Below, one piece after another: positions 19,221 to 45,845 of a DNA stretch of 64,000 bases. The position numbers were made by a program, and so were the translations under genes. Position 1 is the stretch's first letter, and each line of letters begins with the position of its first letter. Below the pieces are notes generated by a model. It saw only the letters and a list, made by a program, of their open reading frames with translations, was not told the origin of the DNA and made no database searches. The stretch is taken from assembly GCF_058153355.1 (NCBI RefSeq), contig NZ_CM177019.1. The stretch is one strand, 5' to 3'.

Positions 19221-19224
19221 ACAT

Positions 19225-19300: not shown

Positions 19301-19348
19301 ATACGGGTGTTACCTGAATGATTTCTACTCGGGACCAATCTTTAATAT

Positions 19349-19419
19349 TGGTGGATCGTGCAGGATGACTCGCTTCGCTCGCCCTACGGGCCGTTGCTGG
19401 CGCAACGTTATCCTTCACG
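19349..19419 (-). repeat. spacer repeat unit beginning with a tRNA-Lys 3'-end mimic (one mismatch)
   Basis: tggtggatcgtgcagga + tgactcgcttcgctcgccctacgggccgttgctggcgcaacgttatccttcacg; near-identical to the copy at 19841-19913. Confidence 0.7.
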
Positions 19420-19446
19420 CTTAACATCTGAGTTTGATGTTAAAAC

Positions 19447-19522
19447 TGGTGGGTCGTGCAGGATTCGAACCTGCGACCAATTGATTAAAAGTCAACTGCT
19501 CTACCAACTGAGCTAACGACCC
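19447..19522 (-). tRNA. tRNA-Lys (anticodon UUU)
   Basis: 76-nt exact match to the tRNA-Lys copy at 19225-19300. Confidence 0.9.
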
Positions 19523-19525
19523 GAG

Positions 19526-19601
19526 TGGTGGGTGATGACGGGATCGAACCGCCGACCCCCTCCTTGTAAGGGAGGTGCTCTCCCAGCTGAGCTAATCACC
19601 C
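19526..19601 (-). tRNA. tRNA-Val (anticodon UAC)
   Basis: 76-nt reverse-complement match to E. coli tRNA-Val(UAC) as recalled; 3-nt spacer to the adjacent tRNA-Lys. Confidence 0.9.
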
Positions 19602-29112: not shown

Positions 29113-29115
29113 CAT

Positions 29116-29916
29116 GACTCCTTGCTCATCGCATGAAGACTCCGAGAGTGAACCCCGTTAGAAAGGGTCACACGCATGCCCCAATACAAAATTATTTGCT
29201 CGCCTCTATCGTTGCCATTTCATCAAAAGAGGAAAAGACAATGATAAAAAAGTTACAAACATGTTAATGAATAAACCAAATTGATCCCGTAATTATATTA
29301 CGCCGCAAAATCCTTACAATAAACAGGTTTTTATTGAGCAAATTTGCATTTTTCGACAGTGATCAATTTATAGCGAAATTGTCACGATCTCACCAATTTG
29401 ATCTACGACAATTTATCGTGTTTTGCAGATTTTTTTCAAGAATTAAAAATTGATTTATATCAAAACCAACCAAATGTGTTAATTATGTATAAACCATAGA
29501 TCATTGGTGATTTTATTGTTAATTTATTGTGAAATGTTTATGCAACACAATTATTACAATGAAAAGGTATAGATAAAAAACCAGTGTTTTATTTAACAGA
29601 ACCGCCTTATCCACTTTTTATAATACCAATTGATTAGAGTAGCCAATTTGTTGCTATTTTACATAACATATTTTTATCAAAGTTAATTGATTGTTGCCTT
29701 TATGAGCATCGCCGTAAGACCGCCATGTTATTGTTTCATTTGTAATAATCACCAATAAGTATCGATGAGAGAGATATCGCTTAACAGAGGCGACTATGTC
29801 TGCATGAACACAGGCAACTTTCGCCTGATAAACGAAAAATGAGCGATTTTTGCAAGTTAGTTTTTCTATAGCCGGGTACGCTGAGCGCCTCGCTTGATTA
29901 CAATGAGGTTGCTGCC
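29116..29916. promoter_or_regulatory. long AT-rich cydAB control region
   Basis: 801-bp AT-rich non-coding region upstream of cydA with multiple TTGAT-type half-sites. Confidence 0.6.
29450..29463. promoter_or_regulatory. FNR-type binding site
   Basis: Perfect TTGAT-TTAT-ATCAA palindrome about 340 bp upstream of cydA start. Confidence 0.6.
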
Positions 29917-30861
29917 ATGGGTCTTGATAATATAGGTTCTGTTGTCAATCGCTTCTCTGGTTGGCCATCAAATGATCCTCTAAAAACAGATAACGAATCA
30001 ATGACATCACCCGTGACTGTGCAGGTAATAAAGTTGATTGCCGCCATCCTTGACCCACATCGGATAGTCGTTGGTATCGATACACTTTACACAACGCAGC
30101 GCAAAACATTTACCTCAGAGGGTCAACAGCTCATTGAATCAGCATTGCAAACACTTCATGTGATGAATTTAAATAACCTGGAAACAAATCTCGATGAGGA
30201 AGGTCACTATCTGGCTTTTGGATATAACGTTGACACTCCTGACAGAATAACCGTTTCTGCTTATAATGAAAAAAAACCTTTCTGTTATGGCCAATGTCTT
30301 TTAATACAGGATGAAGAACCAGATTTATTTAACCTGGTAAAAATTAAAACCTTTGAAGCCAGGCATAATTATGTTTCTAAATTGATGAGCGATCCGGAAT
30401 TTATGTTTAAATTCAGTTATAGCGCCCAACAAAATAGATTAGAACCTCATCTTCTGGTTCCCACTTATTTCCCTCTGAAAACAAACCAACCGGTTACGCT
30501 AGAGGATGTACTGATACTTTATCGTTTCTTTAAAATGAATGGCGATTTTAATATATTAACATCAGATGAATACATGAGTATCATGACACCTCTGATGAAG
30601 TGTGAGCGTAGTGTCCACGACCATAACAGGTATGTGACGGGCAAAGATGCTCTTCTTCTGGACAATCCTCCGTCTGGTAACCAGATATATTTCCATATTT
30701 CCCCTGACGAATCAGCAACACTTGTCCTTTATTTTTCAGACAATAACCTTGAATCCTTCGTCTTTGAAAATGATATTCCGAGCCAGTATCGACATTTCAA
30801 AATGTTTACCAATTTAGCACTAGTTATTGATCAGTTAACCGACGCCAATCAAATACTTTAA
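29917..30861 (+). CDS. hypothetical protein, 314 aa, no family recognised
   Basis: Long ORF in AT-rich DNA with GAGG 9 nt upstream of ATG; no signal peptide, no TM segment and no motif I recognise; true start may be an internal Met. Confidence 0.5.
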   Translation: MGLDNIGSVVNRFSGWPSNDPLKTDNESMTSPVTVQVIKLIAAILDPHRIVVGIDTLYTTQRKTFTSEGQQLIESALQTLHVMNLNNLETNLDEEGHYLAFGYNVDTPDRITVSAYNEKKPFCYGQCLLIQDEEPDLFNLVKIKTFEARHNYVSKLMSDPEFMFKFSYSAQQNRLEPHLLVPTYFPLKTNQPVTLEDVLILYRFFKMNGDFNILTSDEYMSIMTPLMKCERSVHDHNRYVTGKDALLLDNPPSGNQIYFHISPDESATLVLYFSDNNLESFVFENDIPSQYRHFKMFTNLALVIDQLTDANQIL

Positions 30862-30942
30862 TTTTCTATATATCCCCTATGGTAAATATTACTAAACAAT
30901 ACCTGGGGATTAATTTTTATTACTCACGGAAAGATTTAAATA

Positions 30943-31365
30943 ATGATACCATCTCAGATTTCTTTCAATACTCTTCCTGTCAATGCAACATACGCTTCAG
31001 AGACAACAGTTGACACACAAAAATTCTCTGACATCCTCTACTCTGCGGGGTGTTCCCTAAAGGATCTGGCTTATCTGAGCAGATGTCTGGCATCAATACA
31101 TCCGACTATCGCCAAAAACATTTATGAAACAGAAAATCTCAGCGTTCAAAAATTACTGCATATTGATTGCCGTAGTACAAATGAAATCAAGATAAATATC
31201 TTTTTTGGTCAGCAACGAGAAGGATTAATTGAAATTAGTTCTGACACAGTCATTTTTTCGATACTGTCTTCATTGATTGACTCAGCTATTTCTGAACATC
31301 GACATCAAATCACCGTTAACGATTCAAATAATTCTGAACTATTTTATGAGGATTATACTGATTAA
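30943..31365 (+). CDS. hypothetical protein, 140 aa, acidic C-terminus
   Basis: ORF 81 bp downstream of the 314-aa ORF, same strand and same AT-rich composition; ends ...ELFYEDYTD. Confidence 0.45.
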   Translation: MIPSQISFNTLPVNATYASETTVDTQKFSDILYSAGCSLKDLAYLSRCLASIHPTIAKNIYETENLSVQKLLHIDCRSTNEIKINIFFGQQREGLIEISSDTVIFSILSSLIDSAISEHRHQITVNDSNNSELFYEDYTD

Positions 31366-31908
31366 ATCCACTCTGTGCGAACCTGTCCTGCATTTATGCC
31401 AGAAGTATTAGAATCTTTGCTTAACGTTACTCATACAGTAGCACCTTCATGTACTTCTCTTTTTTACGAAAAATCAAAAGAGCTAACAAAGGTCATTCTT
31501 CGCATGGATCATTAATTATTTGTTATTTTCAACATTATTTTTACATTAAGCATATATGAATTGCAGTGAAATTCGACTTAACTTTTATGAAATGCATTTA
31601 CTCATGGCTAAAAAATCTCCCCAAAATGCAAATTAGAAGTTGATCACAATTATCTCAATACATCAAATCAAGTTAATTTTAAAAATTTAACATTCATGAC
31701 ATTAGTTGACGTAACACGCTGAATTAAAATGAGAATTTAAAAACACACTTTAAACAATCATTTCCCGAAAGACATTTTGAAAATAGATCAATTGCAACAT
31801 TACGGTCAGATAAAGACACTCCTCTGATATTAAACCTGTGCCGTTATGAACGGCCATAAATACGACGTGTGTAACTTAATTTACTCTCTGTCTTACAAAG
31901 GATTACCC

Positions 31909-32358
31909 ATGAAGAAAGCAACACTTGTGATTGGCGTTATTGGCGCGGACTGCCATGCAGTAGGCAATAAAGTTCTGGACCGCGTTTTTAGCAACCATGA
32001 CTTCAGAGTCATTAATCTGGGCGTAATGGTCAGCCAGGACGAATATATTGATGCTGCCATTGAAACTGGCGCTGACGCGATTGTCGTCTCCTCTATCTAT
32101 GGGCATGGCGATATCGATTGTCTGGGCATGCGCGAACGCTGCATCGAGCGTGGGCTGGGTAACATCATGCTCTATGTGGGCGGTAACCTGGTGGTCGGAA
32201 AACATGACTTCGCTGACGTGGAAACCAAGTTCAAAGAGATGGGATTTGATCGCGTCTTTTCCCCAAGTCATGACTTAGAAGATGTTTGTCAGCTGATGGC
32301 CCACGATATCACCCAACGTCATGACGTTGATACTCGCATTCTTGAAGAGGCAATCTGA
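31909..32358 (+). CDS. glutamate mutase sigma (S) subunit, B12-binding
   Basis: ORF 31846..32358; start at ATG 31909 (AAGGA 8 nt upstream); [24 protein letters not shown]... with the DxHxxG cobalamin-binding motif (DCHAVG). Confidence 0.85.
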
Positions 32359-33746
32359 TGCAAATCGTCTCTGTCGATATTGGATCGACGTGGACCAAAG
32401 CAGCCCTCTTCACCCGGGAGGGGGACGCGTTAACGTTGGTTAACCACGTTCTGACCCCAACCACCACCCATCATCTGGCGAAAGGGTTTTTCTCCAGCCT
32501 GGACCAGGTGTTAAACGTAGATGATGCCCTCCCCCTGTTAAACAGTGGTGAGGTTGCATTGAAGTATTCCTCCTCTGCCGAAGGTGGGCTGGCGGTTGCC
32601 GCAATGGGATTGGTGCCTTCTATCACCCTGGAAACCGCGAAAGTAACCGCTCACTCTGCGGGTGCTAAAATTGCGCAATATTACGCCTACAAGCTGAACC
32701 GCCGTGATATCCAGGCACTGGAAGAAACGCAGCCCGATATTCTCTTGTTCACCGGCGGCACCGACGGCGGAGAAGAAAGCTACGGACTGAATAACGCCCG
32801 TGTGCTGGCAGAATCCAAACTCGACTGCGCCATTATTTATGCCGGAAACCGGGATATTCAGGATAAGGTGCAGGAGATCCTCGGGCATAAAGACCTGACC
32901 ATCGTCGACAACGTTCTGCCCGATCTTGACCATCCGAACCCTTTAGCTGCACGCCAGGCTATCTGCGACATATTCCTTAAACGCATCGTTAAAGGGAAAG
33001 GGCTGGATGTCATTGTTGATAAAACAGGCGAAGAACCAATGCCGACACCATGGACGGTCTTTGAACTGGTTAAGGCAATCAGTAACGTCGATCACAGCTG
33101 GAAAGAGTTCATGCTGATCGACATGGGCGGCGCAACCACCGATGTCTATTCCGCCTGTGCCAACACGCTCTCGCCCGACACTGTTTTACATGGCGTACCG
33201 GAACCCTTCGTAAAACGGACGGTGGAAGGCGATCTGGGAATGCGCGTCTCGGCAATGGTTGTTGGTGAAAGTGCGAAAGAGTTAGTCAGTGTGAATTTTG
33301 CTCAGCAACCCGCACAGTTGGACGCTTTTTATCATTACCTCCGTCATCTAGTCGCTCATCCCGACTACTTACCCGCGAATGCAGATGAAAAATATTTCGA
33401 TACCGTCCTGGCCGGACTGTGTGTGGGTTATGCCACCGAAAGACATGCGGGCACCAAAAAAGAGGTCTGCACCTGCGTCGGCAATGTCGATTTACAGATG
33501 GGACGTGATCTGACAACCGTGCGTAAAGTCGTGGGTTCCGGCGGATGGCTCTCACGTGCCAGTCAGTTCGATATGCATCACTGGTTGAAATACCGCGAGT
33601 TAAACGACGACGGTAAACGCATTCTCTTACCGACCGAATTTGAATATTACCGCGATTACCGGGGGCTATTACCACTGCTGGCAAACGTCGCCAGAGTCGA
33701 TCCGCTGGCCGCCGCGCGCACCAGTATTCAATGCTTAACCCTATAA
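32358..33746 (+). CDS. glutamate mutase L component (ASKHA-fold putative reactivase/chaperone)
   Basis: 462-aa ORF with TGATG overlap to the S-subunit gene; N-terminal [18 protein letters not shown] actin-like ATPase motif; sits between S and E genes. Confidence 0.75.
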   Translation: MQIVSVDIGSTWTKAALFTREGDALTLVNHVLTPTTTHHLAKGFFSSLDQVLNVDDALPLLNSGEVALKYSSSAEGGLAVAAMGLVPSITLETAKVTAHSAGAKIAQYYAYKLNRRDIQALEETQPDILLFTGGTDGGEESYGLNNARVLAESKLDCAIIYAGNRDIQDKVQEILGHKDLTIVDNVLPDLDHPNPLAARQAICDIFLKRIVKGKGLDVIVDKTGEEPMPTPWTVFELVKAISNVDHSWKEFMLIDMGGATTDVYSACANTLSPDTVLHGVPEPFVKRTVEGDLGMRVSAMVVGESAKELVSVNFAQQPAQLDAFYHYLRHLVAHPDYLPANADEKYFDTVLAGLCVGYATERHAGTKKEVCTCVGNVDLQMGRDLTTVRKVVGSGGWLSRASQFDMHHWLKYRELNDDGKRILLPTEFEYYRDYRGLLPLLANVARVDPLAAARTSIQCLTL

Positions 33747-33764
33747 CAATTAAGGCTGCAATCA

Positions 33765-35210
33765 ATGGAACTTCGAAATAAGAAATTAACCCATGACGAA
33801 TTCATGACCGAGCGGCAACAGGTATTGAAAACCTGGGAAACCGGCAAGGATGTTGAAAACTTTGAAGATGGCGTTAAATACCAACAAACCATTCCTGAGC
33901 ATAAACGCTTCTCTCATGCCCTGCTGAAAGCAGACAAGGAAGGTAAAACCCTTAGCCAACCGCGCGCAGGCGTGGCGCTGATGGACGAACACATCGAACT
34001 ACTGAAAACACTACAAGAAGAGTGCGATCTGCTGCCGAGCACTATCGATGCATATACCCGTCTGAATCGGTACGAAGAAGCGGCTGTAGGGATTAAAAAA
34101 TCCATCGAAGCCAGAACCTCTAAACTGAACGGTTTACCGGTAGTTAACCACGGCGTCGCAGCTTGCCGTCGCCTCACCGAAACTCTGCAAAAACCGCTAC
34201 AGATCCGCCACGGCACGCCAGATGCGCGTCTGCTGGCTGAAATCTCGATGGCCAGCGGCTTTACCAGTTATGAAGGCGGCGGCATTTCCTACAATATTCC
34301 GTATGCCAAGCGCGTAACGCTGGAAAAATCGATCCGCGACTGGCAGTACTGCGACCGTTTAATGGGGATGTATGAAGAACACGGGATCCGCATCAACCGC
34401 GAACCGTTTGGCCCACTAACGGGTACGCTGATCCCGCCGTTTATCTCGCACTCTATCGCGATAATCGAAGGCTTGCTGGCACTGGAACAGGGTGTGAAAT
34501 CTATTACCGTTGGTTATGGACAGGTCGGCAGCCTGACGCAGGATGTCGCGGCGATCCAGTCTCTGCGTGAACTTGCACACGAATACTTTCAGAGCTATGG
34601 CTATACCGACTATGAATTAAGTACCGTATTTCACCAGTGGATGGGCGGCTTTCCGGAGGACGAATCGAAAGCGTTCGCCATTATCTCCTGGGGTGCTGCC
34701 GTCGCGGGGATGTCTGGTGCTACCAAAGTCATCACCAAAAGTCCGCACGAAGCCTGGGGCATCCCGACTGCTGCTGCCAACATTCAGGGGCTAAAAGCCT
34801 CCCGCCAGATGCTCAACATGGTCAACGAGCAGAAATTCCCGCCGTGCCCGGCGGTTGAACTGGAAATTGAACTGATTAAGAGCGAGGTTCGCGCTGTACT
34901 GAACAAAGTGTTCGAACTGGGTAATGGTGATATTGCGCGCGGTACGGTGCTGGCATTTGAAGCGGGCGTACTGGATGTACCGTTTGCCCCAGCCGCCTGC
35001 AACGCAGGCAAAATTCTTCCGGTCCGTGACAACACCGGCGCGATACGCGTACTGGAAGCCGGAGCCGTTCCATTGCCAAAAGATATTCTCGACCTCCACC
35101 ACGATTACGTTGCTGAACGCGCACGCTTTGAAGGACGCCAACCGACATTCCAGATGGTTGTAGATGACATCAATGCTGTATCCCACAGTAAATTAATAGG
35201 AAGACCATAA
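33765..35210 (+). CDS. glutamate mutase epsilon (E) catalytic subunit
   Basis: 481-aa ORF; size and position (S-L-E-methylaspartase order) match the clostridial glutamate mutase operon as recalled. Confidence 0.8.
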   Translation: MELRNKKLTHDEFMTERQQVLKTWETGKDVENFEDGVKYQQTIPEHKRFSHALLKADKEGKTLSQPRAGVALMDEHIELLKTLQEECDLLPSTIDAYTRLNRYEEAAVGIKKSIEARTSKLNGLPVVNHGVAACRRLTETLQKPLQIRHGTPDARLLAEISMASGFTSYEGGGISYNIPYAKRVTLEKSIRDWQYCDRLMGMYEEHGIRINREPFGPLTGTLIPPFISHSIAIIEGLLALEQGVKSITVGYGQVGSLTQDVAAIQSLRELAHEYFQSYGYTDYELSTVFHQWMGGFPEDESKAFAIISWGAAVAGMSGATKVITKSPHEAWGIPTAAANIQGLKASRQMLNMVNEQKFPPCPAVELEIELIKSEVRAVLNKVFELGNGDIARGTVLAFEAGVLDVPFAPAACNAGKILPVRDNTGAIRVLEAGAVPLPKDILDLHHDYVAERARFEGRQPTFQMVVDDINAVSHSKLIGRP

Positions 35211-36451
35211 TGAAAATAAAACAGGCCCTTTTCACCGCTGGCTACTCTTCATTCTATTTCGATGACCAGCAGGCGATAAAAAACGGAGCGGGTCACGACG
35301 GCTTTTTTTATACCGGAGAGCCGGTAACACAGGGGTTTAACGCCGTACGTCAGGCCGGGGAGTGCGTTTCGGTTCAGTTGATTCTGGAAAACGGTGCGGT
35401 CGCCGTAGGCGACTGTGCTGCCGTACAGTATTCCGGGGCAGGCGGTCGCGATCCACTGTTCCTCGCAGAGCACTTTATTCCGTTCCTCAACGACCATATC
35501 AAGCCATTACTGGTAGGCCGCGATGTGGATGCTTTCCTGCCGAATGCCCGTTTCTTCGACAAATTGCGTATTGACGGAAACTTGCTGCATACCGCCGTAC
35601 GTTACGGATTATCACAGGCGCTGCTTGATGCTACCGCGCTGGCAACCGGCCGTCTAAAAACTGAAGTGGTCTGTGATGAATGGCAGTTGCCACGCGTGGC
35701 GGAATCCATTCCATTATTTGGTCAGAGCGGCGACGATCGATATATCGCTGTCGATAAGATGATCCTTAAGGGCATCGACGTGCTACCTCATGCGCTGATT
35801 AATAACGTCGAAGAGAAACTGGGCTTTAAAGGAGAAAAACTGCGCGAATATGTCCGTTGGCTATCCGATCGGATTCTAAGCAAACGCACCAGCGCACGCT
35901 ACCACCCTACCCTGCACATCGATGTATACGGCACTATTGGTCTGATCTTCGATATGGATCCGCTTCGCTGTGCGCAATACATCGCCAGTCTGGAAAAAGA
36001 GGCGCAAGGCCTGCCGCTCTACATTGAGGGGCCGGTCGATGCCGGTAACAAGCCCGATCAAATTCGCCTGCTGACCGCGATTACCAAAGAGCTGACGCGC
36101 CTCGGTTCCGGCGTGAAAATTGTGGCCGATGAATGGTGTAACACCTACCAGGATATTGTTGATTTCACTGATGCCGCCAGTTGCCACATGGTGCAAATCA
36201 AAACCCCGGATCTGGGCAGTATTCACAACATCGTCGATGCAGTTCTTTATTGCAACAGCCACAGCATGGAAGCGTACCAGGGCGGCACCTGCAATGAAAC
36301 CGATGTCAGCGCCCGCACGTGTGTCCACGTCGCCCTTGCCGCTCGCCCTATGCGTATGCTGGTAAAACCGGGGATGGGCTTTGACGAAGGCCTCGATATC
36401 GTCTTCAACGAAATGAATCGTACTATCGCGCTGTTGCAGGCTAAGGATTAA
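35210..36451 (+). CDS. mal: 3-methylaspartate ammonia-lyase (methylaspartase)
   Basis: 413-aa ORF MKIKQALFTAGYSSFYFDDQQAIKNGAGHDGFFYTGEPVT...; strong resemblance to recalled clostridial/Citrobacter methylaspartase (same length; conserved HMVQIKTPDLG, NETN and KPGMG blocks); TAATG overlap with E subunit. Confidence 0.9.
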   Translation: MKIKQALFTAGYSSFYFDDQQAIKNGAGHDGFFYTGEPVTQGFNAVRQAGECVSVQLILENGAVAVGDCAAVQYSGAGGRDPLFLAEHFIPFLNDHIKPLLVGRDVDAFLPNARFFDKLRIDGNLLHTAVRYGLSQALLDATALATGRLKTEVVCDEWQLPRVAESIPLFGQSGDDRYIAVDKMILKGIDVLPHALINNVEEKLGFKGEKLREYVRWLSDRILSKRTSARYHPTLHIDVYGTIGLIFDMDPLRCAQYIASLEKEAQGLPLYIEGPVDAGNKPDQIRLLTAITKELTRLGSGVKIVADEWCNTYQDIVDFTDAASCHMVQIKTPDLGSIHNIVDAVLYCNSHSMEAYQGGTCNETDVSARTCVHVALAARPMRMLVKPGMGFDEGLDIVFNEMNRTIALLQAKD

Positions 36452-36454
36452 CAA

Positions 36455-37825
36455 ATGGCTCGTTCTTTTAAAGTCTTATCGCCAACGGCAATCCTCGGGT
36501 ATGGATTCCCGGAAGAGAGCTTCCGCAAAGCGATGGCAGAATCGCCCGATCTGATCGCCGTTGATGCAGGCTCTTCCGATCCTGGCCCCCACTACCTCGG
36601 GGCGGGCAAACCGTTTACCGATCGCGCAGGGGTCAAACGCGATCTACGCTATATGATCACCGCAGGCGTGCAAAATAATATACCGGTGGTGATCGGAACG
36701 GCCGGCGGTTCTGGTGCAGCTCCACACCTGGAGTGGTGCCGAGAAATAATTCATGAGATTGCCCGGGAAGAGCACCTCGCGTTCTCGATGGCGCTGATCC
36801 CGGCAGACGTTGACAAAGCCATCGTCCACCAGGCGCTGGATAACGGCAAAATCACGGCGCTGGATTTTGTCCCGCCGTTAACCCACGACGCGATTGACGA
36901 AAGTACGTATATCGTCGCGCAAATGGGCGTCGAACCCTTCCAGCAGGCGCTGAAAGAAGGCGCGCAAGTGGTGCTGGGCGGGCGCGCTTACGACCCGGCC
37001 TGCTTTGCTGCGCTACCGATCATGCAAGGCTTTGATGAAGGTCTGGCGCTGCATTGTGGGAAAATCCTTGAATGCGCGGCAATCGCCGCAACGCCCGGCT
37101 CAGGCTCTGACTGTGCGATGGGCATCATTGATGACAACGGCTTTACGCTGAAGACATTTAATCCGAAGCGTAAATTTACCGAAACGTCAGCGGCTGCACA
37201 CACACTGTATGAGAAATCCGATCCCTACTTCCTGCCAGGACCTGGCGGCGTGTTGAACCTGAAAGGTTGCACATTTAAAGCGATCAATGATGGCGAAGTT
37301 TACGTCAGCGGTTCTAAGCATGAAGAAACGCCCTATGCCCTGAAACTGGAAGGTGCGCGGCGGGTGGGTTTCCGCTGTTTGACCATCGCCGGAACGCGCG
37401 ACCCGATCATGATCGCCGGGATCGATAACATCATCGATGAAGTCAAAACCAGCGTTTCGCGTAATCTGTCCTTAGACGATGACAGCATTCGCATCAATTT
37501 CCACCTGTACGGCAAAAACGGGGTGATGGGTAACCATGAACCGATGCAAACTGCCGGGCATGAGCTGGGGATTGTCCTTGATGTAGTTGCACCGACCCAG
37601 GAAATTGCCAACAGCGTTTGCTCGCTGGTGCGCTCTACCATGCTGCACTACGGCTATGAAAACCGCATCGCTACCGCAGGCAACCTGGCGTTCCCGTTCT
37701 CCCCTTCTGATATCCAGGGCGGGCCGGTATACGAATTTTCCATATATCACCTGATTGAAGCCAACGACGCTCTGCGTTTTGATTTCCATATTGAACAGGT
37801 GACGCCAGAAGGAGTTCAGGCATGA
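36455..37825 (+). CDS. conserved protein of unknown function, DUF1446 (AtuA-like), 456 aa
   Basis: ORF starts 4 nt after methylaspartase stop; family assignment from memory of AtuA-like proteins, not from a search. Confidence 0.6.
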   Translation: MARSFKVLSPTAILGYGFPEESFRKAMAESPDLIAVDAGSSDPGPHYLGAGKPFTDRAGVKRDLRYMITAGVQNNIPVVIGTAGGSGAAPHLEWCREIIHEIAREEHLAFSMALIPADVDKAIVHQALDNGKITALDFVPPLTHDAIDESTYIVAQMGVEPFQQALKEGAQVVLGGRAYDPACFAALPIMQGFDEGLALHCGKILECAAIAATPGSGSDCAMGIIDDNGFTLKTFNPKRKFTETSAAAHTLYEKSDPYFLPGPGGVLNLKGCTFKAINDGEVYVSGSKHEETPYALKLEGARRVGFRCLTIAGTRDPIMIAGIDNIIDEVKTSVSRNLSLDDDSIRINFHLYGKNGVMGNHEPMQTAGHELGIVLDVVAPTQEIANSVCSLVRSTMLHYGYENRIATAGNLAFPFSPSDIQGGPVYEFSIYHLIEANDALRFDFHIEQVTPEGVQA

Positions 37826-38139
37826 AACAGTCAATTGTCTCACTGGCGCAAGTCATTCGTTCGAAAAATGCCGGACCTTACGAACTGGTTTTAGATATTT
37901 TATTTAAAACGAAAGAAAACTATGAGCGAGTAAAATCATCAGGGCAATTAACCCCAGAACTGATTGCGCGCTTATATCATGTTGAACCTGACTTTATTCA
38001 TCGTATTGTCTGGTTTGATCCTTCTAACGCAGTAAAAATTGTCATGCCACGAGATATTATCTCCGGGAATGTAGGTGACAATGATGTCTATGGCGCACAG
38101 CAACATGCACCTTTATTAAATATGAGTTTCGATTTGTAA
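37822..38139 (+). CDS. small conserved protein, DUF4387-like partner, 105 aa
   Basis: ATGA overlap with the preceding ORF; AT-rich; DUF1446/DUF4387 pairing is from memory. Confidence 0.5.
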   Translation: MKQSIVSLAQVIRSKNAGPYELVLDILFKTKENYERVKSSGQLTPELIARLYHVEPDFIHRIVWFDPSNAVKIVMPRDIISGNVGDNDVYGAQQHAPLLNMSFDL

Positions 38140-38225
38140 AAATCCGAACACTTTTAGCCAACTGACATCCCGTCACTTATTGCAGCTCAACACTTCAGCT
38201 ATTTGTAAGGTTGTTATAGCAGGTA

Positions 38226-38251
38226 GATGCCTGAATCTCTATTCAGGCATC
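38226..38251 (+). other. perfect 11-bp-stem hairpin between the DUF4387-like gene and the transporter
   Basis: gatgcctgaat-ctct-attcaggcatc; followed by pyrimidine-rich sequence but no clean T-run. Confidence 0.4.
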
Positions 38252-38299
38252 CACTTCTCCTGATTCTGATTTATCGCCGTGCACCTGATGGAGGAAAAA

Positions 38300-39580
38300 A
38301 TGAAGAAAATAAGTTTAACCACGATGATTCTTTTGGCGCTGGTACTTGGAATGATTATCGGCGTAGTGCTCAATAACACTGCTTCACCGGAAACAGCAAA
38401 ACTCTATGCGCAAGAAATATCGATATTCACGACGATTTTCTTACGACTGATAAAAATGATTATCGCTCCGTTAGTGGTCTCTACCCTGGTGGTAGGTATT
38501 GCTAAAATGGGCGATGCCAAAGCCCTTGGTCGTATTTTTTCTAAAACACTCTTTTTATTTATTTGCGCCTCATTGCTGTCAATTGCCTTAGGCTTGATAA
38601 CGGTAAATTTCTTCATGCCAGGCACAGGAATTAATTTTGTTGCACACGGTGCCGAAACCACCGGAGTGGTCGCGTCAGAACCCTTTACACTAAAAGTATT
38701 TATTTCGCATGCTTTCCCCACCAGCATTGTCGATGCCATGGCGCACAATGAAATTTTGCAAATCGTGGTGTTCTCAATTTTCCTCGGCTGTAGCCTGACG
38801 GCGATTGGTGAGAAAGGCAGCGCCATCGTTCACGCCTTAGATTCGCTGGCACATGCCATGTTAAAGCTCACTGGCTACGTCATGCTCTTCGCTCCCCTGA
38901 CCGTATTCGCCGCTATTTCAGCATTGATTGCTGAACGAGGACTGGCAGTTATGGTGAGCGCCGGGATCTTTATGGGTGAATTTTATTTCACCATGTTATT
39001 ACTTTGGGTGCTGCTTATCGGTCTGGCCATCGTTTATGTCGGCCCCTGCATCAGACGCCTGACCCGCGCCCTTTCAGAACCCGCCCTGCTGGCATTTACC
39101 ACATCCAGTTCTGAAGCTGCTTTTCCGGGAACGCTTGAAAAACTGGAGCAATTTGGCGTTTCCCCCAAAATTGCCAGCTTTGTCTTACCCATTGGCTACT
39201 CATTTAATCTCGTTGGATCAATGGCCTACTGCTCCTTCGCCACAGTTTTCATCGCCCAGGCCTGCAATATCCATTTATCCATCGGTGAGCAAATCACCAT
39301 GCTGTTGATCCTGATGTTGACCTCGAAAGGAATGGCTGGCGTACCACGCGCCTCAATGGTGGTTATCGCCGCCACGCTCAACCAGTTCAATATTCCGGAA
39401 GCGGGGCTGATCTTGCTGATGGGCGTTGATCCGTTCCTTGATATGGGGCGTTCCGCGACAAACGTCATGAGCAACGCAATGGGCGCTGCGATGGTGAGTC
39501 GGTGGGAAGGCGAACATTTCGGCGAGGGTTGTCGGGGTAAAGCATTAAAACCCAATGAATCGAACGTTGCTCTGCCCTGA
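38300..39580 (+). CDS. dicarboxylate/amino acid:cation symporter (DAACS)-family transporter
   Basis: ORF 38279..39580; start at ATG 38300 (GGAGG 5 nt upstream); polytopic membrane protein resembling GltP/DctA-type symporters. Confidence 0.7.
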   Translation: MKKISLTTMILLALVLGMIIGVVLNNTASPETAKLYAQEISIFTTIFLRLIKMIIAPLVVSTLVVGIAKMGDAKALGRIFSKTLFLFICASLLSIALGLITVNFFMPGTGINFVAHGAETTGVVASEPFTLKVFISHAFPTSIVDAMAHNEILQIVVFSIFLGCSLTAIGEKGSAIVHALDSLAHAMLKLTGYVMLFAPLTVFAAISALIAERGLAVMVSAGIFMGEFYFTMLLLWVLLIGLAIVYVGPCIRRLTRALSEPALLAFTTSSSEAAFPGTLEKLEQFGVSPKIASFVLPIGYSFNLVGSMAYCSFATVFIAQACNIHLSIGEQITMLLILMLTSKGMAGVPRASMVVIAATLNQFNIPEAGLILLMGVDPFLDMGRSATNVMSNAMGAAMVSRWEGEHFGEGCRGKALKPNESNVALP

Positions 39581-39687
39581 GGGAGATCTTAAGCAATCAG
39601 AAGCCAATGACTACGCATTTTTATAAGCCGGATCATGAAGTTAGACGGCAATTAAGTAACACTAACGTTTAAGGTGAAAAGTGAAAT

Positions 39688-41340
39688 ATGTCCAAACCAT
39701 TTATCTGGCAAGAACCGTTTCTACAAAATAAAGACGGTACAGAATATACATTAATTAGCGATCAACATATTACAGTAACGGAATTAGACGGCGAAGAAGT
39801 AATAAAAATCGCTCCTGAAGCATTAACGCTGCTTGCCCGGCAGGCATTTTATGAAGCCTCTTTTTTCTTACGTTCCGCTCATTTGCAACAGGTCGCCAGC
39901 ATTCTTAACGATCCGCAGGCCAGCAGTAATGATAAATACGTTGCGTTGCAGTTATTACGTAATGCTGAAGTCTCAGCAAAAGGGGTATTACCCAACTGTC
40001 AGGATACCGGCACCGCAACTATTGTTGCCAGTAAAGGGCAACAGATATGGACCGGAGGCAACGACGCCGAAGCCTTAAGCAAAGGCATTTACACCACTTT
40101 TCAGGAAAATAATTTGCGCTTTTCACAAAATGCGCCGCTGGATATGTATACCGAAGTCAATACGTACACCAATCTACCGGCGCAGATTGATATCAGCGCC
40201 GTCGCTGGTGATGAGTACCATTTTCTCTGTATTAATAAAGGGGGCGGCTCCGCCAATAAAGCCGCACTTTATCAGGAAACCAAATCCTTATTGCAACCAG
40301 AAAAACTGACCGCATTTTTAATCGAAAAAATGAAATCGCTGGGCACCGCTGCCTGCCCGCCTTACCACATCGCCTTTGTCGTCGGAGGGCTTTCAGCCGA
40401 TCAAACCTTAAAAGTTGCCAAGCTGGCCTCTACGAAATATTACGACAATTTGCCCACCAGCGGAAACGAGCAGGGACAAGCATTCCGTGATATTGAGCTG
40501 GAAAAAGCGTTGCTCGAAGCCAGTCAGCAATTTGGTATTGGTGCGCAATTTGGGGGTAAATATTTCGCTCATGATATTCGCGTCATTCGTCTGCCGCGTC
40601 ACGGTGGCTCCTGCCCGATAGCTATGGCGCTCTCCTGTTCTGCCGATCGCAATATCAAAGCAAAAATTAACAAGCATGGTATCTGGCTGGAAAAACTCGA
40701 ACACAATCCGGGGCAATATATTCCAGCCTCACTGCGGGAAGAAAATCACGCGCAACATGTACAGCTGGATCTAAACCGTCCGTTGCGTGACGTGATGCAG
40801 GATCTCGCCAGATTACCGGTAGGCACCCGCGTGTCGTTAAGTGGTCCCATCGTAGTGGCGCGCGATATCGCCCACGCCAAAATAAAAGCGCGGCTGGATA
40901 GCGGCGAATCGATGCCGGATTATCTGAAGCATCATATTGTCTATTACGCTGGCCCGGCGAAAACACCGGAGAACATGGCCTGCGGTTCACTGGGTCCAAC
41001 CACGGGCGGTCGAATGGACGGTTATGTCGAAACCTTCCAGGCGGCTGGCGGCAGTCTGGTAATGTTATCGAAAGGTAACCGCAGCCAGCAGGTCACCGAT
41101 GCCTGTCACAAACATGGCGGCTTCAATCTGGGAAGTATTGGCGGTGCAGCTGCGTTACTGGCGCAAGAATATGTCAAAAGTCTGCGTTGCCTGGAATACC
41201 CGGAGCTGGGTATGGAAGCGGTGTGGATGATGGAAGTGGAAAATCTGCCCGCATTCATCCTGGTCGATGATAAAGGCAATAATTTCTTTAGTCAGTTTGA
41301 GCAGCAACACCGCTGCGCCAGTTGCCCTGCGGGACATTAA
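39688..41340 (+). CDS. fumD: class I (Fe-S) fumarate hydratase paralog, probable mesaconase/fumarase
   Basis: 550-aa ORF colinear with E. coli FumA/FumB as recalled ([70 protein letters not shown]); symbol fumD is from memory of the O157:H7 mesaconase. Confidence 0.8.
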
Positions 41341-41349
41341 GGAAAATGA

Positions 41350-41952
41350 ATGGAAGCGCGAATTTCAACTGAACGGCATGTGCAGCGCCAGCAGAAATTG
41401 AAGGAACAGGTCGATACGCGCGTCGCGGCGGCGATAGAGAAAAAAGGGATCTTGATTGTTTTCACCGGCAACGGCAAAGGGAAATCCACTGCCGCGTTTG
41501 GTACTGTGACGCGCGCGGTGGGTCATGGCAAAACGGTGGGGGTTGCGCAGTACATCAAGGGGCAATGGGACAACGGCGAATACAACCTTCTCCAGCCGCT
41601 GGGGGTTGAGTTTCATATTATGGGAACCGGTTTTACCTGGGAGACTCAGAACCGGCAAGCGGATATCGACGCGGCGAAAGAGGTCTGGTCGGAAAGCAAA
41701 CGGATGCTGGCTGACAAGCGTTACGACTTAGTGGTGCTTGATGAGCTGACCTATATGCTGGCTTACCATTATCTGGACACCGAAGAAGTGATCACTTCTC
41801 TGCAAAACCGCCCGGCACAACAAAGTGTCATTGTCACCGGACGCAGTTGCCACAGTCAGATATTAAAAATGGCGGATACGGTCAGCGAAATCCGCCCCGT
41901 CAAACATGCTTTTGATAACGGCATTCAGGCGCAGCCGGGTATCGACTGGTAA
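41350..41952 (+). CDS. cob(I)alamin adenosyltransferase (CobA/BtuR family)
   Basis: 200-aa ORF with P-loop GNGKGKST and close resemblance to E. coli BtuR as recalled (VFTGNGKGK.TAAFGT.TRAVGHGK, LDELTYM, ELRPVKHAF). Confidence 0.85.
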   Translation: MEARISTERHVQRQQKLKEQVDTRVAAAIEKKGILIVFTGNGKGKSTAAFGTVTRAVGHGKTVGVAQYIKGQWDNGEYNLLQPLGVEFHIMGTGFTWETQNRQADIDAAKEVWSESKRMLADKRYDLVVLDELTYMLAYHYLDTEEVITSLQNRPAQQSVIVTGRSCHSQILKMADTVSEIRPVKHAFDNGIQAQPGIDW

Positions 41953-41985
41953 TAACTGCGCCTGGCATCCCGCCAGGCGCAGGTT

Positions 41986-42891
41986 TTACATCTCCTGCGG
42001 TACGACCGATTTCGCCAGCAACCATTCACGAAATTGCTGCAAGTGCGGCGAGTCAGACTTCTCTTCCTGCCACGTCATAATAAAACGATTACCGGTACGA
42101 ATAGGCACATCACAGGGAATCACCATATCGCCACTATCCAAATCATGTTGAATAGCGAACCGTGGTAACAGCGCCACGCCGAGATTAGAGCGCACGGCGG
42201 CAATCAGCATTGAAAGCAAATCGAAACGTGGTCCGTTATTGACCAGCGGACTGCTAACGCCAGATAAAGCAAACCACTCTTCCCAGCCAGTAATACGGGT
42301 GCTTTGATGCAGAAGTGGTAACTCAGTAAGCAGTTCTGCCACTGAAAGTTTTTGATCGGACATTGCAAGCAAACTGCCGCTGCATACCGGCAAAATCTCC
42401 TCTTCAAAGAGATATTCTACTTCCGCCCAGGGCGCGCAAAAATTTTCGCGCATAATGACAGCATCGTACTCCCGATTAAGAAAATCGCCGTTATTAGCTA
42501 AAGAATGAATATTAACAATAATATCGGGATGTAACTTTGTGAATTCATGTAAATTTGGGATTAACCAGTGGGTACTAAACGTAGGATTAACGGCAAGTTC
42601 AATAACCTGAACCGTAGGCTGCCAGGTCATAATCGTATTGGTATCGCGTTCCAGCTTATTTAATGTTTCTTTTACTATCCCCAGGTAATACTTCCCTGCA
42701 TCATTAAGAAAAATGCGTTTTTTAGAGTGTGAAAATAGCGGAGTATGTAAAAATTCCTCCAGCGCACTTACTTGTCTGAATACAGCACTTTGGGTTAACG
42801 CTAACTCCTCTGCCGCTCTGGTATAGCTTTCATGACGTGCGACGACCTCAAAAGTCACCAGCAGCTCCGTTTTAGGTATTTTTCCTCGCAT
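41986..42891 (-). CDS. LysR-family transcriptional regulator
   Basis: ORF 41986..42921; start set at internal Met (MRGKIPKTELLVTFEVVARHESYTRAAEELALTQSAVFRQVSALEE, LysR HTH); 42921 is an alternative start; convergent with the adenosyltransferase gene, divergent from the RtcB-like gene. Confidence 0.8.
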   Translation of the reverse strand: MRGKIPKTELLVTFEVVARHESYTRAAEELALTQSAVFRQVSALEEFLHTPLFSHSKKRIFLNDAGKYYLGIVKETLNKLERDTNTIMTWQPTVQVIELAVNPTFSTHWLIPNLHEFTKLHPDIIVNIHSLANNGDFLNREYDAVIMRENFCAPWAEVEYLFEEEILPVCSGSLLAMSDQKLSVAELLTELPLLHQSTRITGWEEWFALSGVSSPLVNNGPRFDLLSMLIAAVRSNLGVALLPRFAIQHDLDSGDMVIPCDVPIRTGNRFIMTWQEEKSDSPHLQQFREWLLAKSVVPQEM

Positions 42892-43480
42892 AATGCCGTC
42901 CGTGAAAAAATAACAATTCAAAAATTATTTTATAAAAAACAGTAGCACTAATGAATATCATAATTCAAATAAACAAACCAGTCAGCTATATGTCTAACCA
43001 GGAAAATAAAGTGACAATAATCCTAAAACAGGAATTTCACCTCAGTTATCCGCATGCAATACTTTAAAGCTATTATTGCAAGAATATTATTCATATACAT
43101 GAATATACTCTAAATAAGTCAAGTTGCAGGAAGGGAACAAATAATGAATTTCCAGAAGCTTACATAAGTAAGTGACCTGGGTGAGCGAACATCGATGCAG
43201 CACATGCAACTTGAATTATGACAAGTATACAATGATAAATTTATATACCCTATGTTATATATTATCTATGTCCGGTTAGATTGAATGAGTCATAGCCTTA
43301 AAAGACTTCACAAAAGATAATTCCTCTTTAACAATAAGCCAGATTTACCACTTGTAAAACTTGCTATCGCCACATACACTACGCGCGTTTTCTTTCCCTT
43401 TTGCTGGCTGCTGACCGGAAAGACAAAATTACCCTCGCAATACAGGGGGTTGATTAACGTCTATATTTCAGGACAGCGTT

Positions 43481-44878
43481 ATGCATCATCTTTCAAGGCT
43501 TGATAAAGCCTTTCTGCGCAAAGGGATCCAACTTTCCCGCGCCAACAATATTGTTTCATTATGTCGTCCATCAGGAGCCAGTGCCCGCGTACTGCTGCCG
43601 GACGAACTGCCGCTGGAAGAAAAAGCAGTAACACAACTGCTTGATTTTGCAGAAGTGAAGCTACCAGACCACCCAGGTTATGTGCGCCAGACGTGCGCGA
43701 CGCCAGATTTTCATCCCGGCAATGGCGTCCCCGTTGGCGCGGTGGTGGCCTCAACGCCGGATTTAGTCATTCCCGCCGCCATCGGCACCGATATTTCTTG
43801 TGGCATGCGGCTGCTGACGACCGGATTAACACTTGAGCAAGCCGAAGCGCATAAAGACGTCATCGCTCAGCGGTTAACGCAAGTGCTACTGCAAAATGAG
43901 CGCGATGTTCCGTTATCCGCACAGGCGTTCACCGCGCTTTTTGATGGCGGACCGGCAGATTGCGTGTCGACCTTGCCATCAGCAGGTCTCTGGACACGCA
44001 CGAATATCCCCCGAATGGTACAAGAGATTGACCGCTGCATTGGGCTTAACGAGCATAACAGTCATTCGCGTTATGCCCCACCCGCCCTGCTGGCAACGGA
44101 CCGCGCATTACTCCGCGATCCTTGTCTTGGTACGCCGGGTTCAGGTAATCATTTTATTGAACTTCAGGTCGTTGATAGCGTGGTTGATCGCCATGTAGCC
44201 TGGCAACAAGGGCTGAAAACAGGCGATATTGTGGTGATGATCCACAGTGGATCGCGAGATGTTGGCTTTTACGTCGGAAGACGCTGGATGGATCGCGCCC
44301 GTGCTGAATGGCCCACCGGACATAAACATCCACAAAGCGGGTTATATGGTCTGGCAGGCGGACTGGCGGAGGAATATCTACAAGCGATAGGAATGGCGGC
44401 GCGTTACGCGTGGTTAAATCGCGTGACAATTGCCGAAATGGTGCGCGTATGTCTTGCCAATCTCTTTCATCAGGACAATTCGCATCTGGTGGTGGATGTG
44501 CCACATAACATCATCCTTCGCGAGCATGAAATGAATATTCATCGCAAAGGCGCAACACCGGCACGAGTGGGCAATCTGGCGTTAATCCCCGGTTCAATGG
44601 GCGATTATTCGTGGCTTGCGGTAGGTTGCGGCAACCCGGAGTGGCTGTGGTCTTGCAGTCACGGAGCAGGACGCAGCCAGCGTCGGCAGGCCATGCGCTC
44701 ACGCGCGACTGAAGAGTCAACGTTGCCGTGGCAATGCGTCACATTGCGCGAAGAACGGCGTATTGAAGAAGCGCCAGCTGCTTATAAAGATATTGGTCCG
44801 GTTATCGAAGCCCAACAAGAGGCCGGATTAATTCATCCAGCGGTTAGATTCCGACCGTGGTTAACGTTTAAAGCATAA
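43481..44878 (+). CDS. RtcB-family RNA ligase paralog, 465 aa
   Basis: Conserved RtcB blocks aligned by eye to E. coli RtcB: IPAAIGTDISCGM, GSGNHFIE, MIHSGSRDVG, IPGSMGDYS, CSHGAGR, AAYKDI. Confidence 0.8.
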   Translation: MHHLSRLDKAFLRKGIQLSRANNIVSLCRPSGASARVLLPDELPLEEKAVTQLLDFAEVKLPDHPGYVRQTCATPDFHPGNGVPVGAVVASTPDLVIPAAIGTDISCGMRLLTTGLTLEQAEAHKDVIAQRLTQVLLQNERDVPLSAQAFTALFDGGPADCVSTLPSAGLWTRTNIPRMVQEIDRCIGLNEHNSHSRYAPPALLATDRALLRDPCLGTPGSGNHFIELQVVDSVVDRHVAWQQGLKTGDIVVMIHSGSRDVGFYVGRRWMDRARAEWPTGHKHPQSGLYGLAGGLAEEYLQAIGMAARYAWLNRVTIAEMVRVCLANLFHQDNSHLVVDVPHNIILREHEMNIHRKGATPARVGNLALIPGSMGDYSWLAVGCGNPEWLWSCSHGAGRSQRRQAMRSRATEESTLPWQCVTLREERRIEEAPAAYKDIGPVIEAQQEAGLIHPAVRFRPWLTFKA

Positions 44879-44975
44879 AAAAGGCCATCATACGATGGCC
44901 AACCATGTCGAAACCGACAGCCCTTCGCCATTCCTGTAGAGGGAAGCGGCGAGGGCTATTTCTTATTACAGATAT
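44877..44975 (-). ncRNA. sdhX: sucD 3'-UTR-derived small RNA (SdhX-like) ending at an intrinsic terminator
   Basis: Minus-strand region after sucD stop ends ggccatcgtatgatggcc + U6; assignment rests on recalled position of SdhX. Confidence 0.45.
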
Positions 44976-45845
44976 TTATTTCAGAACAGTTTTCAGTGCT
45001 TCACCGATATCCGCCAGGCTGCGAACGGTTTTCACGCCTGCGGCTTCCAGAGCAGCAAATTTCTCATCCGCAGTCCCTTTCCCACCGGCAATGATGGCAC
45101 CCGCGTGGCCCATACGTTTGCCTTTCGGCGCAGTTACACCAGCGATGTAACCTACAACTGGCTTGGTAACGTGCTCTTTGATGTACGCAGCCGCTTCTTC
45201 TTCAGCGCTACCGCCGATCTCACCGATCATCACGATCGCTTCGGTCTGCGGATCTTTTTCGAACATTTCGAGGATGTCGATAAAGTTAGAGCCTGGGATC
45301 GGGTCGCCGCCGATACCGACACAGGTCGACTGACCGAAACCGTAATCCGTGGTCTGTTTAACCGCTTCATAGGTCAGTGTACCGGAACGGGAAACGATAC
45401 CCACTTTACCCGGTTTGTGAATGTGACCAGGCTGGATGCCGATTTTACATTCACCCGGAGTGATAACGCCTGGGCAGTTCGGGCCGATCATGCGTACGCC
45501 AGCTTCGTCCAGTTTCACTTTCACCGTCAGCATATCCAGCGTCGGGATGCCTTCAGTGATGGTGATAATCAGTTTGATACCTGCGTCGATGGCTTCCAGA
45601 ATGGAGTCTTTGCAGAACGGAGCCGGTACGTAGATAACAGAAGCGGTAGCGCCAGTGGCAGCAACGGCTTCACGCACAGTGTTGAACACCGGCAGACCGA
45701 GGTGGGTAGTACCGCCTTTACCAGGGGTTACGCCGCCAACCATTTTAGTGCCGTATGCAATGGCCTGTTCAGAGTGGAAAGTCCCCTGGCTACCAGTAAA
45801 GCCCTGGCAGATAACCTTGGTGTTTTTATCAATTAAAATGGACAT
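44976..45845 (-). CDS. sucD: succinyl-CoA synthetase alpha subunit
   Basis: 289-aa [48 protein letters not shown]... Confidence 0.95.

Follow-up and report, generated by a model that had tools for sequence, protein, structure and literature searches.

The window analysed here, a 64,000-nucleotide stretch of DNA, carries the E. coli island for glutamate fermentation by the methylaspartate pathway, and we consider it very probable (roughly 0.85) that this island encodes every step of the pathway, with CmlAB as the lyase. Judged by sequence, the pair of DUF-family genes at 36455-38139 is CmlAB; the assignment draws on the titles of two PDB entries, a preprint in which the enzyme was put to use, and identities of 92% and about 85%. 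The island is already known in E. coli, and its missing-lyase question, once open, has since been answered; Kronen & Berg 2015 had left the fate of citramalate open (PMC4682846).

The island is inserted between cydAB and sucABCD, and its plus-strand genes run in the order glmS-glmL-glmE-mal-DUF1446-DUF4387-symporter-fumD-cobA, with 38300-41952 forming the end of the row. Its features are:

31909..32358, plus strand: glmS, glutamate (methylaspartate) mutase B12-binding subunit S (equivalogs NF002612, 250 bits, and TIGR01501, 242 bits, above cut-offs)
32358..33746, plus strand: glmL, mutase accessory (reactivating) protein (PF13941 MutL, E 2e-138; NF040745, 506 bits, cut-off 475)
33765..35210, plus strand: glmE, glutamate mutase catalytic subunit E (equivalog TIGR01503, 864 bits, cut-off 390)
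35210..36451, plus strand: mal, 3-methylaspartate ammonia-lyase (equivalog TIGR01502, 544 bits, cut-off 286; PF05034 and PF07476)
36455..37825, plus strand: cmlA, predicted citramalate lyase large subunit (AtuA/DUF1446 family, PF07287)
37822..38139, plus strand: cmlB, predicted citramalate lyase small subunit (DUF4387, PF14330; 9ERQ chain B, E 5e-57, ~85% identity)
38300..39580, plus strand: SDF/DAACS-family dicarboxylate/amino acid:cation symporter (PF00375 over its full length, E 2e-102)
39688..41340, plus strand: fumD, class I fumarase with mesaconase activity (PF05681 and PF05683; NF011921, 1276 bits, cut-off 1060)
41350..41952, plus strand: cobA/cobO-type ATP:cob(I)alamin adenosyltransferase (TIGR00708, 245 bits, cut-off 168; NF004637, 295 bits, cut-off 185)
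41956..41982, no strand assigned: GC-rich hairpin with a T run, shared terminator of cobA (plus) and the LysR gene (minus)
41986..42891, minus strand: LysR-family regulator, convergent with the operon (GcvA-like subfamily, 221 bits, below cut-off)

Overlaps or short gaps join the genes of the row throughout, and the sole strong plus-strand terminator lies 3' of cobA; with 11 pairs, 9 of them GC, this hairpin is the strongest terminator-like plus-strand site within 29000-45000. glmS starts at ATG 31909 behind the ribosome-binding site AAGGA, and its product is identical to Sakai ECs_0764 at 145 of 149 residues. The LysR regulator matches ECs_0755 at 299/301 residues and is co-located in 23 related loci. 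The whole 64 kb is colinear with E. coli N96.

The initial annotation had seen no recognisable citramalate lyase here, while allowing that the DUF pair might supply the missing activity. The first of these statements does not survive a PDB sequence search, which identifies the neighbouring pair as CmlAB (9erq_A, E 6.6e-293; 9erq_B, E 5.2e-57) and places a probable citramalate lyase, cmlA/cmlB, inside the island; the second is favored by the close similarity of the pair to the crystallised enzyme. Window CmlA is identical to chain A of PDB 9ERQ/9EVF at 419 of 456 residues (92%, residues 1-456), and window CmlB is ~85% identical to chain B over residues 1-104, leaving 37/456 and ~16/104 substitutions, respectively. 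In a fold test, the pair shares its fold with CmlAB (PDB 9ERQ/9EVF), and the columns that are invariant over 35 homologues, several Gly-rich loops included, are kept in the window protein. These entries, released in October 2025, label their chains “Citramalate lyase, subunit A (cmlA)” and “subunit B (cmlB)”; their ligand sets are AMPPNP/citramalate and ADP/pyruvate, and the crystallised sequence is identical to that of Klebsiella michiganensis DSM 25444. The cmlAB genes of Raoultella planticola have been used in vivo to turn citramalate into pyruvate and acetate: growth on mesaconate required a cmlAB plasmid, carbon from unlabelled mesaconate reached acetyl-CoA against 13C-labelled co-substrates, and CmlAB was independent of CoA and ACP (bioRxiv 10.64898/2026.01.16.699985). 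This 2026 user preprint was all that a literature search for a primary description of CmlAB, or for an assay of E. coli CmlAB, returned. Pfam, NCBIfam and PGAP still give the pair no lyase name (“AtuA family”, “DUF4387”), and older records call its members “3-methylaspartate ammonia-lyase” and “acyl-CoA synthetase”, so automated pathway calls keep reporting a false gap.

Gene neighborhoods point the same way. We surveyed the context of 86 cmlA-anchored loci from Proteobacteria, Riflebacteria, Aminicenantes, Spirochaetes, Firmicutes and others, and we observe an adjacent cmlB in 85/86, mal in 79/86, glmE in 71/86 and a class I fumarase in 46/86; CitCDEFXG genes stand next to cmlA in none of the 86. 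The mal-cmlA-cmlB linkage is kept across distant phyla. A stand-alone cmlAB pair in Shewanella has an HrpA helicase, an M4 peptidase and an acyl-CoA dehydrogenase as neighbors, which are uninformative. In most non-enterobacterial clusters, the gene 3' of cmlB encodes a P-loop protein of ~310 aa that is conserved but belongs to no assigned family. This protein has no counterpart in the 64-kb window; the 314-aa hypothetical protein at the island's left edge was considered as a candidate and rejected (BLASTP E 2.2).

The three genes that close the row are those the initial annotation had named, a symporter, a class I fumarase and a CobA-type adenosyltransferase (matches to PF00375, NF011921 and TIGR00708), and the last two do lie 9 bp apart, with the fumD stop TAA at 41338-41340 and the cobA ATG at 41350. 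The symporter gene starts at ATG 38300 behind the ribosome-binding site GGAGG, and its product is identical to Sakai ECs_0758 at 425 of 426 residues. Since it scores below the cut-offs for both DctA (314 bits, cut-off 513) and GltP (304 bits, cut-off 638), its substrate is not assignable by homology; the symporter of the Sakai-type cluster is labelled GltP in Fig 5 of PMC4682846, and context makes a glutamate importer probable. The fumarase falls short of the FumA model cut-off (NF011919) and is 98.2% identical (540/550) to the assayed FumD of E. coli O157:H7, ECs_0757, for which mesaconase activity was shown, with a kcat/Km of 2e6 on mesaconate against 7.5e5 on fumarate (Kronen & Berg 2015, PMC4682846); the earlier label of mesaconase-type fumarase is thereby supported. 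The adenosyltransferase, 198/200 identical to ECs_0756, carries a P-loop, GNGKGKST, encoded at ~41470-41493.

Taken together, these genes suggest the following route. The SDF symporter would import the substrate, most likely glutamate, and the mutase GlmSE, which depends on AdoCbl and is assisted by the accessory protein GlmL, would rearrange it to 3-methylaspartate, the adenosylcobalamin being made from salvaged corrinoid by the island's own CobA-type enzyme. Mal would then remove ammonia to give mesaconate, and FumD would add water to give (S)-citramalate, as was shown for the 98% identical protein. Finally, CmlAB would split citramalate into pyruvate and acetate, a step suggested by the depositors' name and ligands and by the Raoultella enzyme's behavior in vivo. 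CmlAB would in this way be a non-homologous replacement for the clostridial ACP-dependent CitDEF-type citramalate lyase, dispensing with CoA and with the CitC/X/G prosthetic-group machinery. With CmlAB encoded just upstream of the symporter, the pathway is complete on paper.

Two other fates for citramalate had been proposed, and both fit the data poorly. In principle, the citramalate could be cleaved by a host citrate lyase, CitDEF aided by CitC/X/G, whose genes lie at another chromosomal site: the citramalate lyase of clostridia and citrate lyase are homologous (PMC4682846), and the closest complete genome, E. coli N96, has citCDEFXG-citT ~105 kb from the island. The island itself lacks CitD/E/F-like subunits, as the initial annotation stated (E. 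coli queries, tblastn against six frames of the 64-kb window, best E 0.69); the full E. coli CitC/D/E/F/X/G set searched in the same way gave nothing better than E 0.11, as expected by chance, and the annotation of the colinear N96 stretch contains no cit genes. Against such substitution, citrate lyase activity reached 0.48 U/mg in extracts of citrate-grown O157:H7, yet citramalate lyase activity stayed below the detection limit of 1 mU/mg, and extracts with isocitrate lyase or methylisocitrate lyase were likewise negative (PMC4682846). As the operon encodes a dedicated lyase of its own, we regard a role for the host enzyme as extremely improbable. Only slightly less improbable is a pathway that halts at mesaconate or (S)-citramalate, with the product excreted or used otherwise and the DUF pair unrelated to it in E. 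coli. O157:H7 showed neither growth on glutamate nor expression of the cluster (PMC4682846), and we found no report in the literature of citramalate lyase activity for the E. coli proteins themselves. However, cmlA begins 3 bp after mal and cmlB overlaps it by 4 bp in the same gene row, the pair closely resembles an enzyme crystallised both with citramalate and with pyruvate, and its linkage to mal spans distant phyla. Such a truncated pathway becomes unnecessary once CmlAB is assigned.

A different question is whether the island is used. Kronen & Berg found no conditions under which the cluster was expressed in O157:H7, and no anaerobic growth on glutamate (PMC4682846), and thus the pathway may be silent in E. 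coli or may serve another purpose there. It is a live possibility, if somewhat short of even odds, that the island is a horizontally acquired cassette, complete on paper and silenced, that is used only in specific gut conditions such as corrinoid supply or the presence of a LysR inducer, in which case its completeness would be of little laboratory consequence. The failed attempts to detect expression are consistent with this, as are the AT-rich 540 bp 5' of glmS, which match no riboswitch or other Rfam family, and the drop in GC to 0.36 at the island's left edge; across 29000-45000, no cobalamin or other riboswitch matched Rfam at E <= 1. The island is present in only 1138/5426 complete E. coli genomes (about a fifth), and is reported from most O157:H7 strains and many opportunistic enterobacteria (Kronen & Berg, PMC4682846). 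On the other side, every gene of the island is intact and shares 98-100% identity with its Sakai counterpart, a pattern that speaks for purifying selection. Silencing is in any case a matter of regulation, and is compatible with the enzymatic assignment. With CmlAB assigned, the island would by itself suffice, given B12, to take glutamate all the way to pyruvate, acetate and ammonia, and its role in gut colonisation becomes testable.

ATP may take part in the CmlAB reaction as a co-substrate, perhaps by way of an acyl phosphate, or may act only as a bound effector. Crystals with AMPPNP and citramalate, and with ADP and pyruvate, place the nucleotide at or near the active site, and this pairing makes ATP possible as a co-substrate. 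We tentatively raise, as a rather unlikely option, that the C4 carboxylate is converted to an acyl phosphate and that C-C cleavage then yields pyruvate and acetyl phosphate, not free acetate. If ATP does serve as co-substrate, it would be recoverable via acetate kinase, and the large, poorly understood AtuA/DUF1446 family, AtuA of terpene degradation included, would consist of nucleotide-dependent acetate-eliminating lyases. The ~310-aa P-loop protein encoded 3' of cmlB may be part of the same machinery. The depositors of 9ERQ/9EVF almost certainly already know the answer.

Among known systems, AtuA of acyclic terpene utilisation in Pseudomonas and Thauera belongs to the same Pfam family as CmlA (PF07287; a weak match of 72 bits). 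AtuA proteins are ~600 aa long and have the DUF4387 part fused. Their putatively assigned step, in which a tertiary 3-hydroxy acid loses acetate, is chemically analogous to citramalate cleavage, and has also been attributed to LiuE (PMC4097962). The CoA route of Burkholderia mesaconate utilisation and itaconate degradation (succinyl-CoA:citramalate CoA-transferase and (S)-citramalyl-CoA lyase) likewise takes (S)-citramalate to pyruvate and a C2 unit, and also follows a class I fumarase/mesaconase step (PMC4682846); unlike that route, the window has neither a CoA-transferase nor a CitE-like lyase, and citramalyl-CoA lyase genes are absent from most enterobacteria (PMC4682846). The CitDEF-type citramalate lyase of Clostridium tetanomorphum and its relatives (EC 4.1.3.22) catalyses the same overall reaction at the same place in the methylaspartate pathway, and the clostridial genes are clustered with glm, mal and mesaconase genes (PMC4682846). 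CmlAB, by contrast, has no sequence relationship to it, works without CoA or ACP according to the preprint, and has an adenine nucleotide bound; the window contains no CitD ACP, CitE/CitF or CitC/X/G.

The window also has counterparts in two enterobacterial loci. The E. coli O157:H7 cluster ECs_0755-0764 (PMC4682846) has the same sucD/cydA insertion site and gene order, and its proteins are 98-100% identical to those of the window (FumD 540/550, CmlB 105/105). Unlike Sakai, the window and N96 have an additional gene of the RtcB family, located between sucD and the LysR gene, and two left-edge hypothetical genes are only 87% and 91% identical; none of these three genes gave a match in a PADLOC scan. 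The Klebsiella locus differs in that ~1.1 kb of additional sequence separates the symporter gene from fumD. In other respects the window resembles the CmlAB system of Klebsiella/Raoultella (9ERQ/9EVF): the same AtuA/DUF1446 and DUF4387 pair, with subunits of 456 and 105 aa, follows directly after mal in a glmS-L-E-mal operon that is accompanied by the symporter, fumD, cobA and a LysR gene.

The citramalate lyase sought at this locus is the pair of DUF genes upstream of the symporter, which encode a predicted citramalate lyase, CmlAB; this assignment draws on PDB sequence matches, on the names and ligands of the deposited structures, and on the behavior of a homologue in vivo. The symporter, fumD and cobA are the final three genes of a single + strand row that starts at glmS.

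Genes of the row, in window coordinates
31909-32358, + strand: glmS, equivalog-level NCBIfam cut-off passed
32358-33746, + strand: glmL, equivalog-level NCBIfam cut-off passed
33765-35210, + strand: glmE, equivalog-level NCBIfam cut-off passed
35210-36451, + strand: mal (ammonia-lyase), equivalog-level NCBIfam cut-off passed
36455-37825, + strand: cmlA, AtuA/DUF1446 family, 456 aa
37822-38139, + strand: cmlB, DUF4387, 105 aa
38300-39580, + strand: symporter, full-length match to PF00375, the sodium:dicarboxylate symporter family (E 2e-102)
39688-41340, + strand: fumD, single-chain class I fumarase, PF05681 and PF05683, NF011921 (1276 bits)
41350-41952, + strand: cobA, CobA-type cob(I)alamin adenosyltransferase, TIGR00708 (245 bits, cut-off 168)

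In a comparison of both DUF proteins with PDB sequences, the larger (456 aa) hit 9erq_A (E 6.6e-293; 419/456 identical), which its depositors call "Citramalate lyase, subunit A (cmlA)"; the smaller (105 aa) hit 9erq_B (E 5.2e-57; ~85% identical), called "subunit B (cmlB)". Klebsiella michiganensis DSM 25444 has a locus whose CmlA is identical (456/456) to the crystallised A chain. The 456-aa window protein, modelled with AlphaFold2 (pLDDT 85.6), superposes with a TM of 0.94 on 9evf_A, from an entry released on 2025-10-08 and titled "Citramalate lyase - ADP - pyruvate complex". Our literature search found no primary paper describing CmlAB, and a preprint using cmlAB from Raoultella planticola reports that mesaconate-supported growth required the cmlAB plasmid, that unlabelled mesaconate supplied with 13C-labelled co-substrates delivers its carbon to acetyl-CoA, and that up-regulation of acetyl-CoA synthetase was beneficial (bioRxiv 10.64898/2026.01.16.699985), the last being consistent with acetate as the released product. 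The headline of the initial annotation, "no recognisable citramalate lyase", has been overtaken by the 2025 PDB entries, and its third alternative, that the DUF pair supplies the missing activity, holds.

Its first alternative, substitution by the host citrate lyase, had already been disproved by experiment. Kronen & Berg 2015, whose study of E. coli O157:H7 described the cluster and gave FumD its name, detected no citramalate lyase activity where extracts showed citrate lyase at 0.48 U/mg, nor where isocitrate lyase or methylisocitrate lyase was abundant; in their conclusion, "the fate of (S)-citramalate ... is still unclear". They noted a neighboring DUF1446 gene of then-unknown function, often misannotated as methylaspartate ammonia-lyase, and found no conditions for expression of the cluster (PMC4682846). 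The island itself encodes no CitD/E/F-like subunit, as had been claimed: with the cit operon of E. coli N96, ~105 kb outside the window, as the source of the CitC, D, E, F, X and G queries, tblastn over the six reading frames of the whole window gave a best E of 0.11, which is chance level, and no cit gene is annotated in the part of N96 colinear with the window.

We surveyed 86 loci with close CmlA relatives (56-92% identity; 6 retrieved by exact protein match, 80 drawn from species-representative genomes) in Enterobacterales, Betaproteobacteria, Riflebacteria, Aminicenantes, Spirochaetes, Lentisphaerae, Planctomycetes and Firmicutes, scoring each by tblastn for the window proteins and CitCDEFXG. 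The survey is anchored on cmlA, and its counts describe cmlA-bearing loci rather than mal-bearing genomes at large. Within ~10 kb of cmlA lay cmlB at 85/86 loci (the one without it being a short contig), mal at 79/86, glmE at 71/86, glmL at 64/86, glmS at 62/86, a class I fumarase at 46/86 and any Cit protein at 0/86, and the usual order was glmS-glmL-glmE-mal-cmlA-cmlB. In clostridial clusters, CitDEF genes hold the place taken here by cmlAB (PMC4682846). Linkage of mal, cmlA and cmlB without Cit is as expected if CmlAB is the pathway lyase, a non-homologous replacement for CitDEF.

Stand-alone cmlAB pairs, whose surroundings out to 10 kb contain neither mal nor glmE, occur in Shewanella (L070:9992-11664, L081 and L084), Accumulibacter (L039) and Desulfospira (L072); their CmlA is 57-68% identical to that of the window, and the Shewanella neighbors are an HrpA helicase, an M4 peptidase and an acyl-CoA dehydrogenase. 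Most non-enterobacterial glm-mal-cmlAB clusters carry, directly after cmlB, a ~310-aa protein with a Walker A motif (GAEGxGKST), found at 49/86 related loci (e.g. L007:11677-12618, L008:11712-12665, L005:11698-12654, L009:11706-12629) and absent from the window. Two distant copies share 62% identity, and matches in Pfam, NCBIfam and PDB are confined to the P-loop. It is absent from enterobacterial clusters, which have the symporter, fumD and cobA instead; a few Firmicutes loci combine it with a CobA-like gene.

The symporter, class I fumarase and CobA-type adenosyltransferase reported at 38300-41952 are confirmed by PF00375, NF011921 and TIGR00708, as is the 9-bp spacing of the last two (fumarase stop ending at 41340, cobA ATG at 41350). 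A GGAGG ribosome-binding site precedes the symporter ATG at 38300, and a longer GTG-started ORF from 38279 probably does not mark the true start; NCBIfam scores fall below cut-off for both DctA (314 vs 513 bits) and GltP (304 vs 638 bits). The 160 bp that separate cmlB from the symporter gene hold a perfect 8-bp inverted repeat at 38229-38250, GCCTGAAT CTCT ATTCAGGC, with no T run after it. The fumarase passes the NF011921 equivalog cut-off (1060 bits) and not that of the FumA model, and its proposed mesaconase activity is upheld by the 540/550 residues it shares with the assayed ECs_0757.

The window is colinear with N96 across all 64 kb (97.7-98.8% identity), and its island sits between cydAB and sucABCD, with a 12-kb core present in 1138/5426 complete E. 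coli genomes; the exact CmlA-like and fumarase sequences are in NCBI under E. coli. A LysR-family gene on the opposite strand converges with the row, and the strongest + strand terminator-like site within 29000-45000 lies at 41956-41982 and consists of a GC-rich hairpin and a T run. The 540-bp stretch upstream of glmS (31366-31908) is strongly AT-rich and has no Rfam match, including to a cobalamin riboswitch, although the operon is B12-dependent; it could be a silenced promoter region, which might tie in with the reported non-expression. At the island's left edge (GC 0.36), two hypothetical + strand genes (29917-30861, 314 aa; 30943-31365, 140 aa) have no match in Pfam, NCBIfam or PADLOC, occur at 0/86 related loci, and share only 87% and 91% identity with the corresponding Sakai genes, against 98-100% for the pathway genes. 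Between the LysR gene and sucD, an RtcB-family gene (43481-44878, +) matches RtcB models over residues 213-464 only, below cut-off, leaving a ~210-aa N-terminal remainder without assignment; it is shared with N96 and missing at the same site in Sakai. At ~19200-19550, in the tRNA-Lys/tRNA-Val array beside nadA-pnuC, the N96 alignment breaks and overlaps, and an apparent ~220 bp surplus in the window suggests that the two differ by one tRNA unit in copy number.

Curated homology predicts the functions of GlmSE/GlmL, Mal and CobA, and FumD is a mesaconase, as measured on a 98% identical protein. CmlAB, judged by deposit names and ligands, would bind citramalate and pyruvate, and would cleave mesaconate-derived citramalate to pyruvate and acetate, as the homologue in vivo supports; from context, the symporter may import glutamate and the LysR protein may regulate the operon. 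That the substrate complex contains a non-hydrolysable ATP analogue and the product complex ADP suggests a possible role for ATP in catalysis. If each citramalate cost one ATP net, we reason, the sole ATP gained from pyruvate in this fermentation would be offset; either energy would be conserved (e.g. as acetyl phosphate) or the nucleotide would not be consumed; the preprint treats the product as acetate (bioRxiv 10.64898/2026.01.16.699985). Candidate ligand loops are the invariant Gly-rich loops of a 35-sequence alignment (e.g. D42-P-G-P...G49-x-G-K52 and P214-G-S-G), which are low-confidence in the AlphaFold2 model.

The locus and lyase assignment being already known, the remaining value lies in the nucleotide role, in expression in E. 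coli, and in an annotation gap that exists because Pfam, NCBIfam and PGAP still give the lyase no name. Public records also retain misleading names. In the Sakai locus (L091:31934-33618, taken from NC_002695.2), cmlA (ECs_0760) is named '3-methylaspartate ammonia-lyase' and cmlB (ECs_0759) 'acyl-CoA synthetase'; Salmonella, Riflebacteria and Lentisphaerae records also give cmlA the former name.

Among known systems, the window lyase resembles CitDEF in none of the respects checked. The locus is an O157:H7-type glutamate fermentation cluster, sharing site and gene order with Sakai ECs_0755-0767 and encoding proteins 98-100% identical (CmlB 105/105, CmlA 449/456, symporter 425/426, CobA 198/200, Mal 412/413). 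CmlA is a weak member of the Pfam AtuA family (72 bits), and the chemistry of the two would be analogous, with acetate freed from a tertiary hydroxy acid. In sequence, fold and context alike, the window lyase agrees with the CmlAB of 9ERQ/9EVF.
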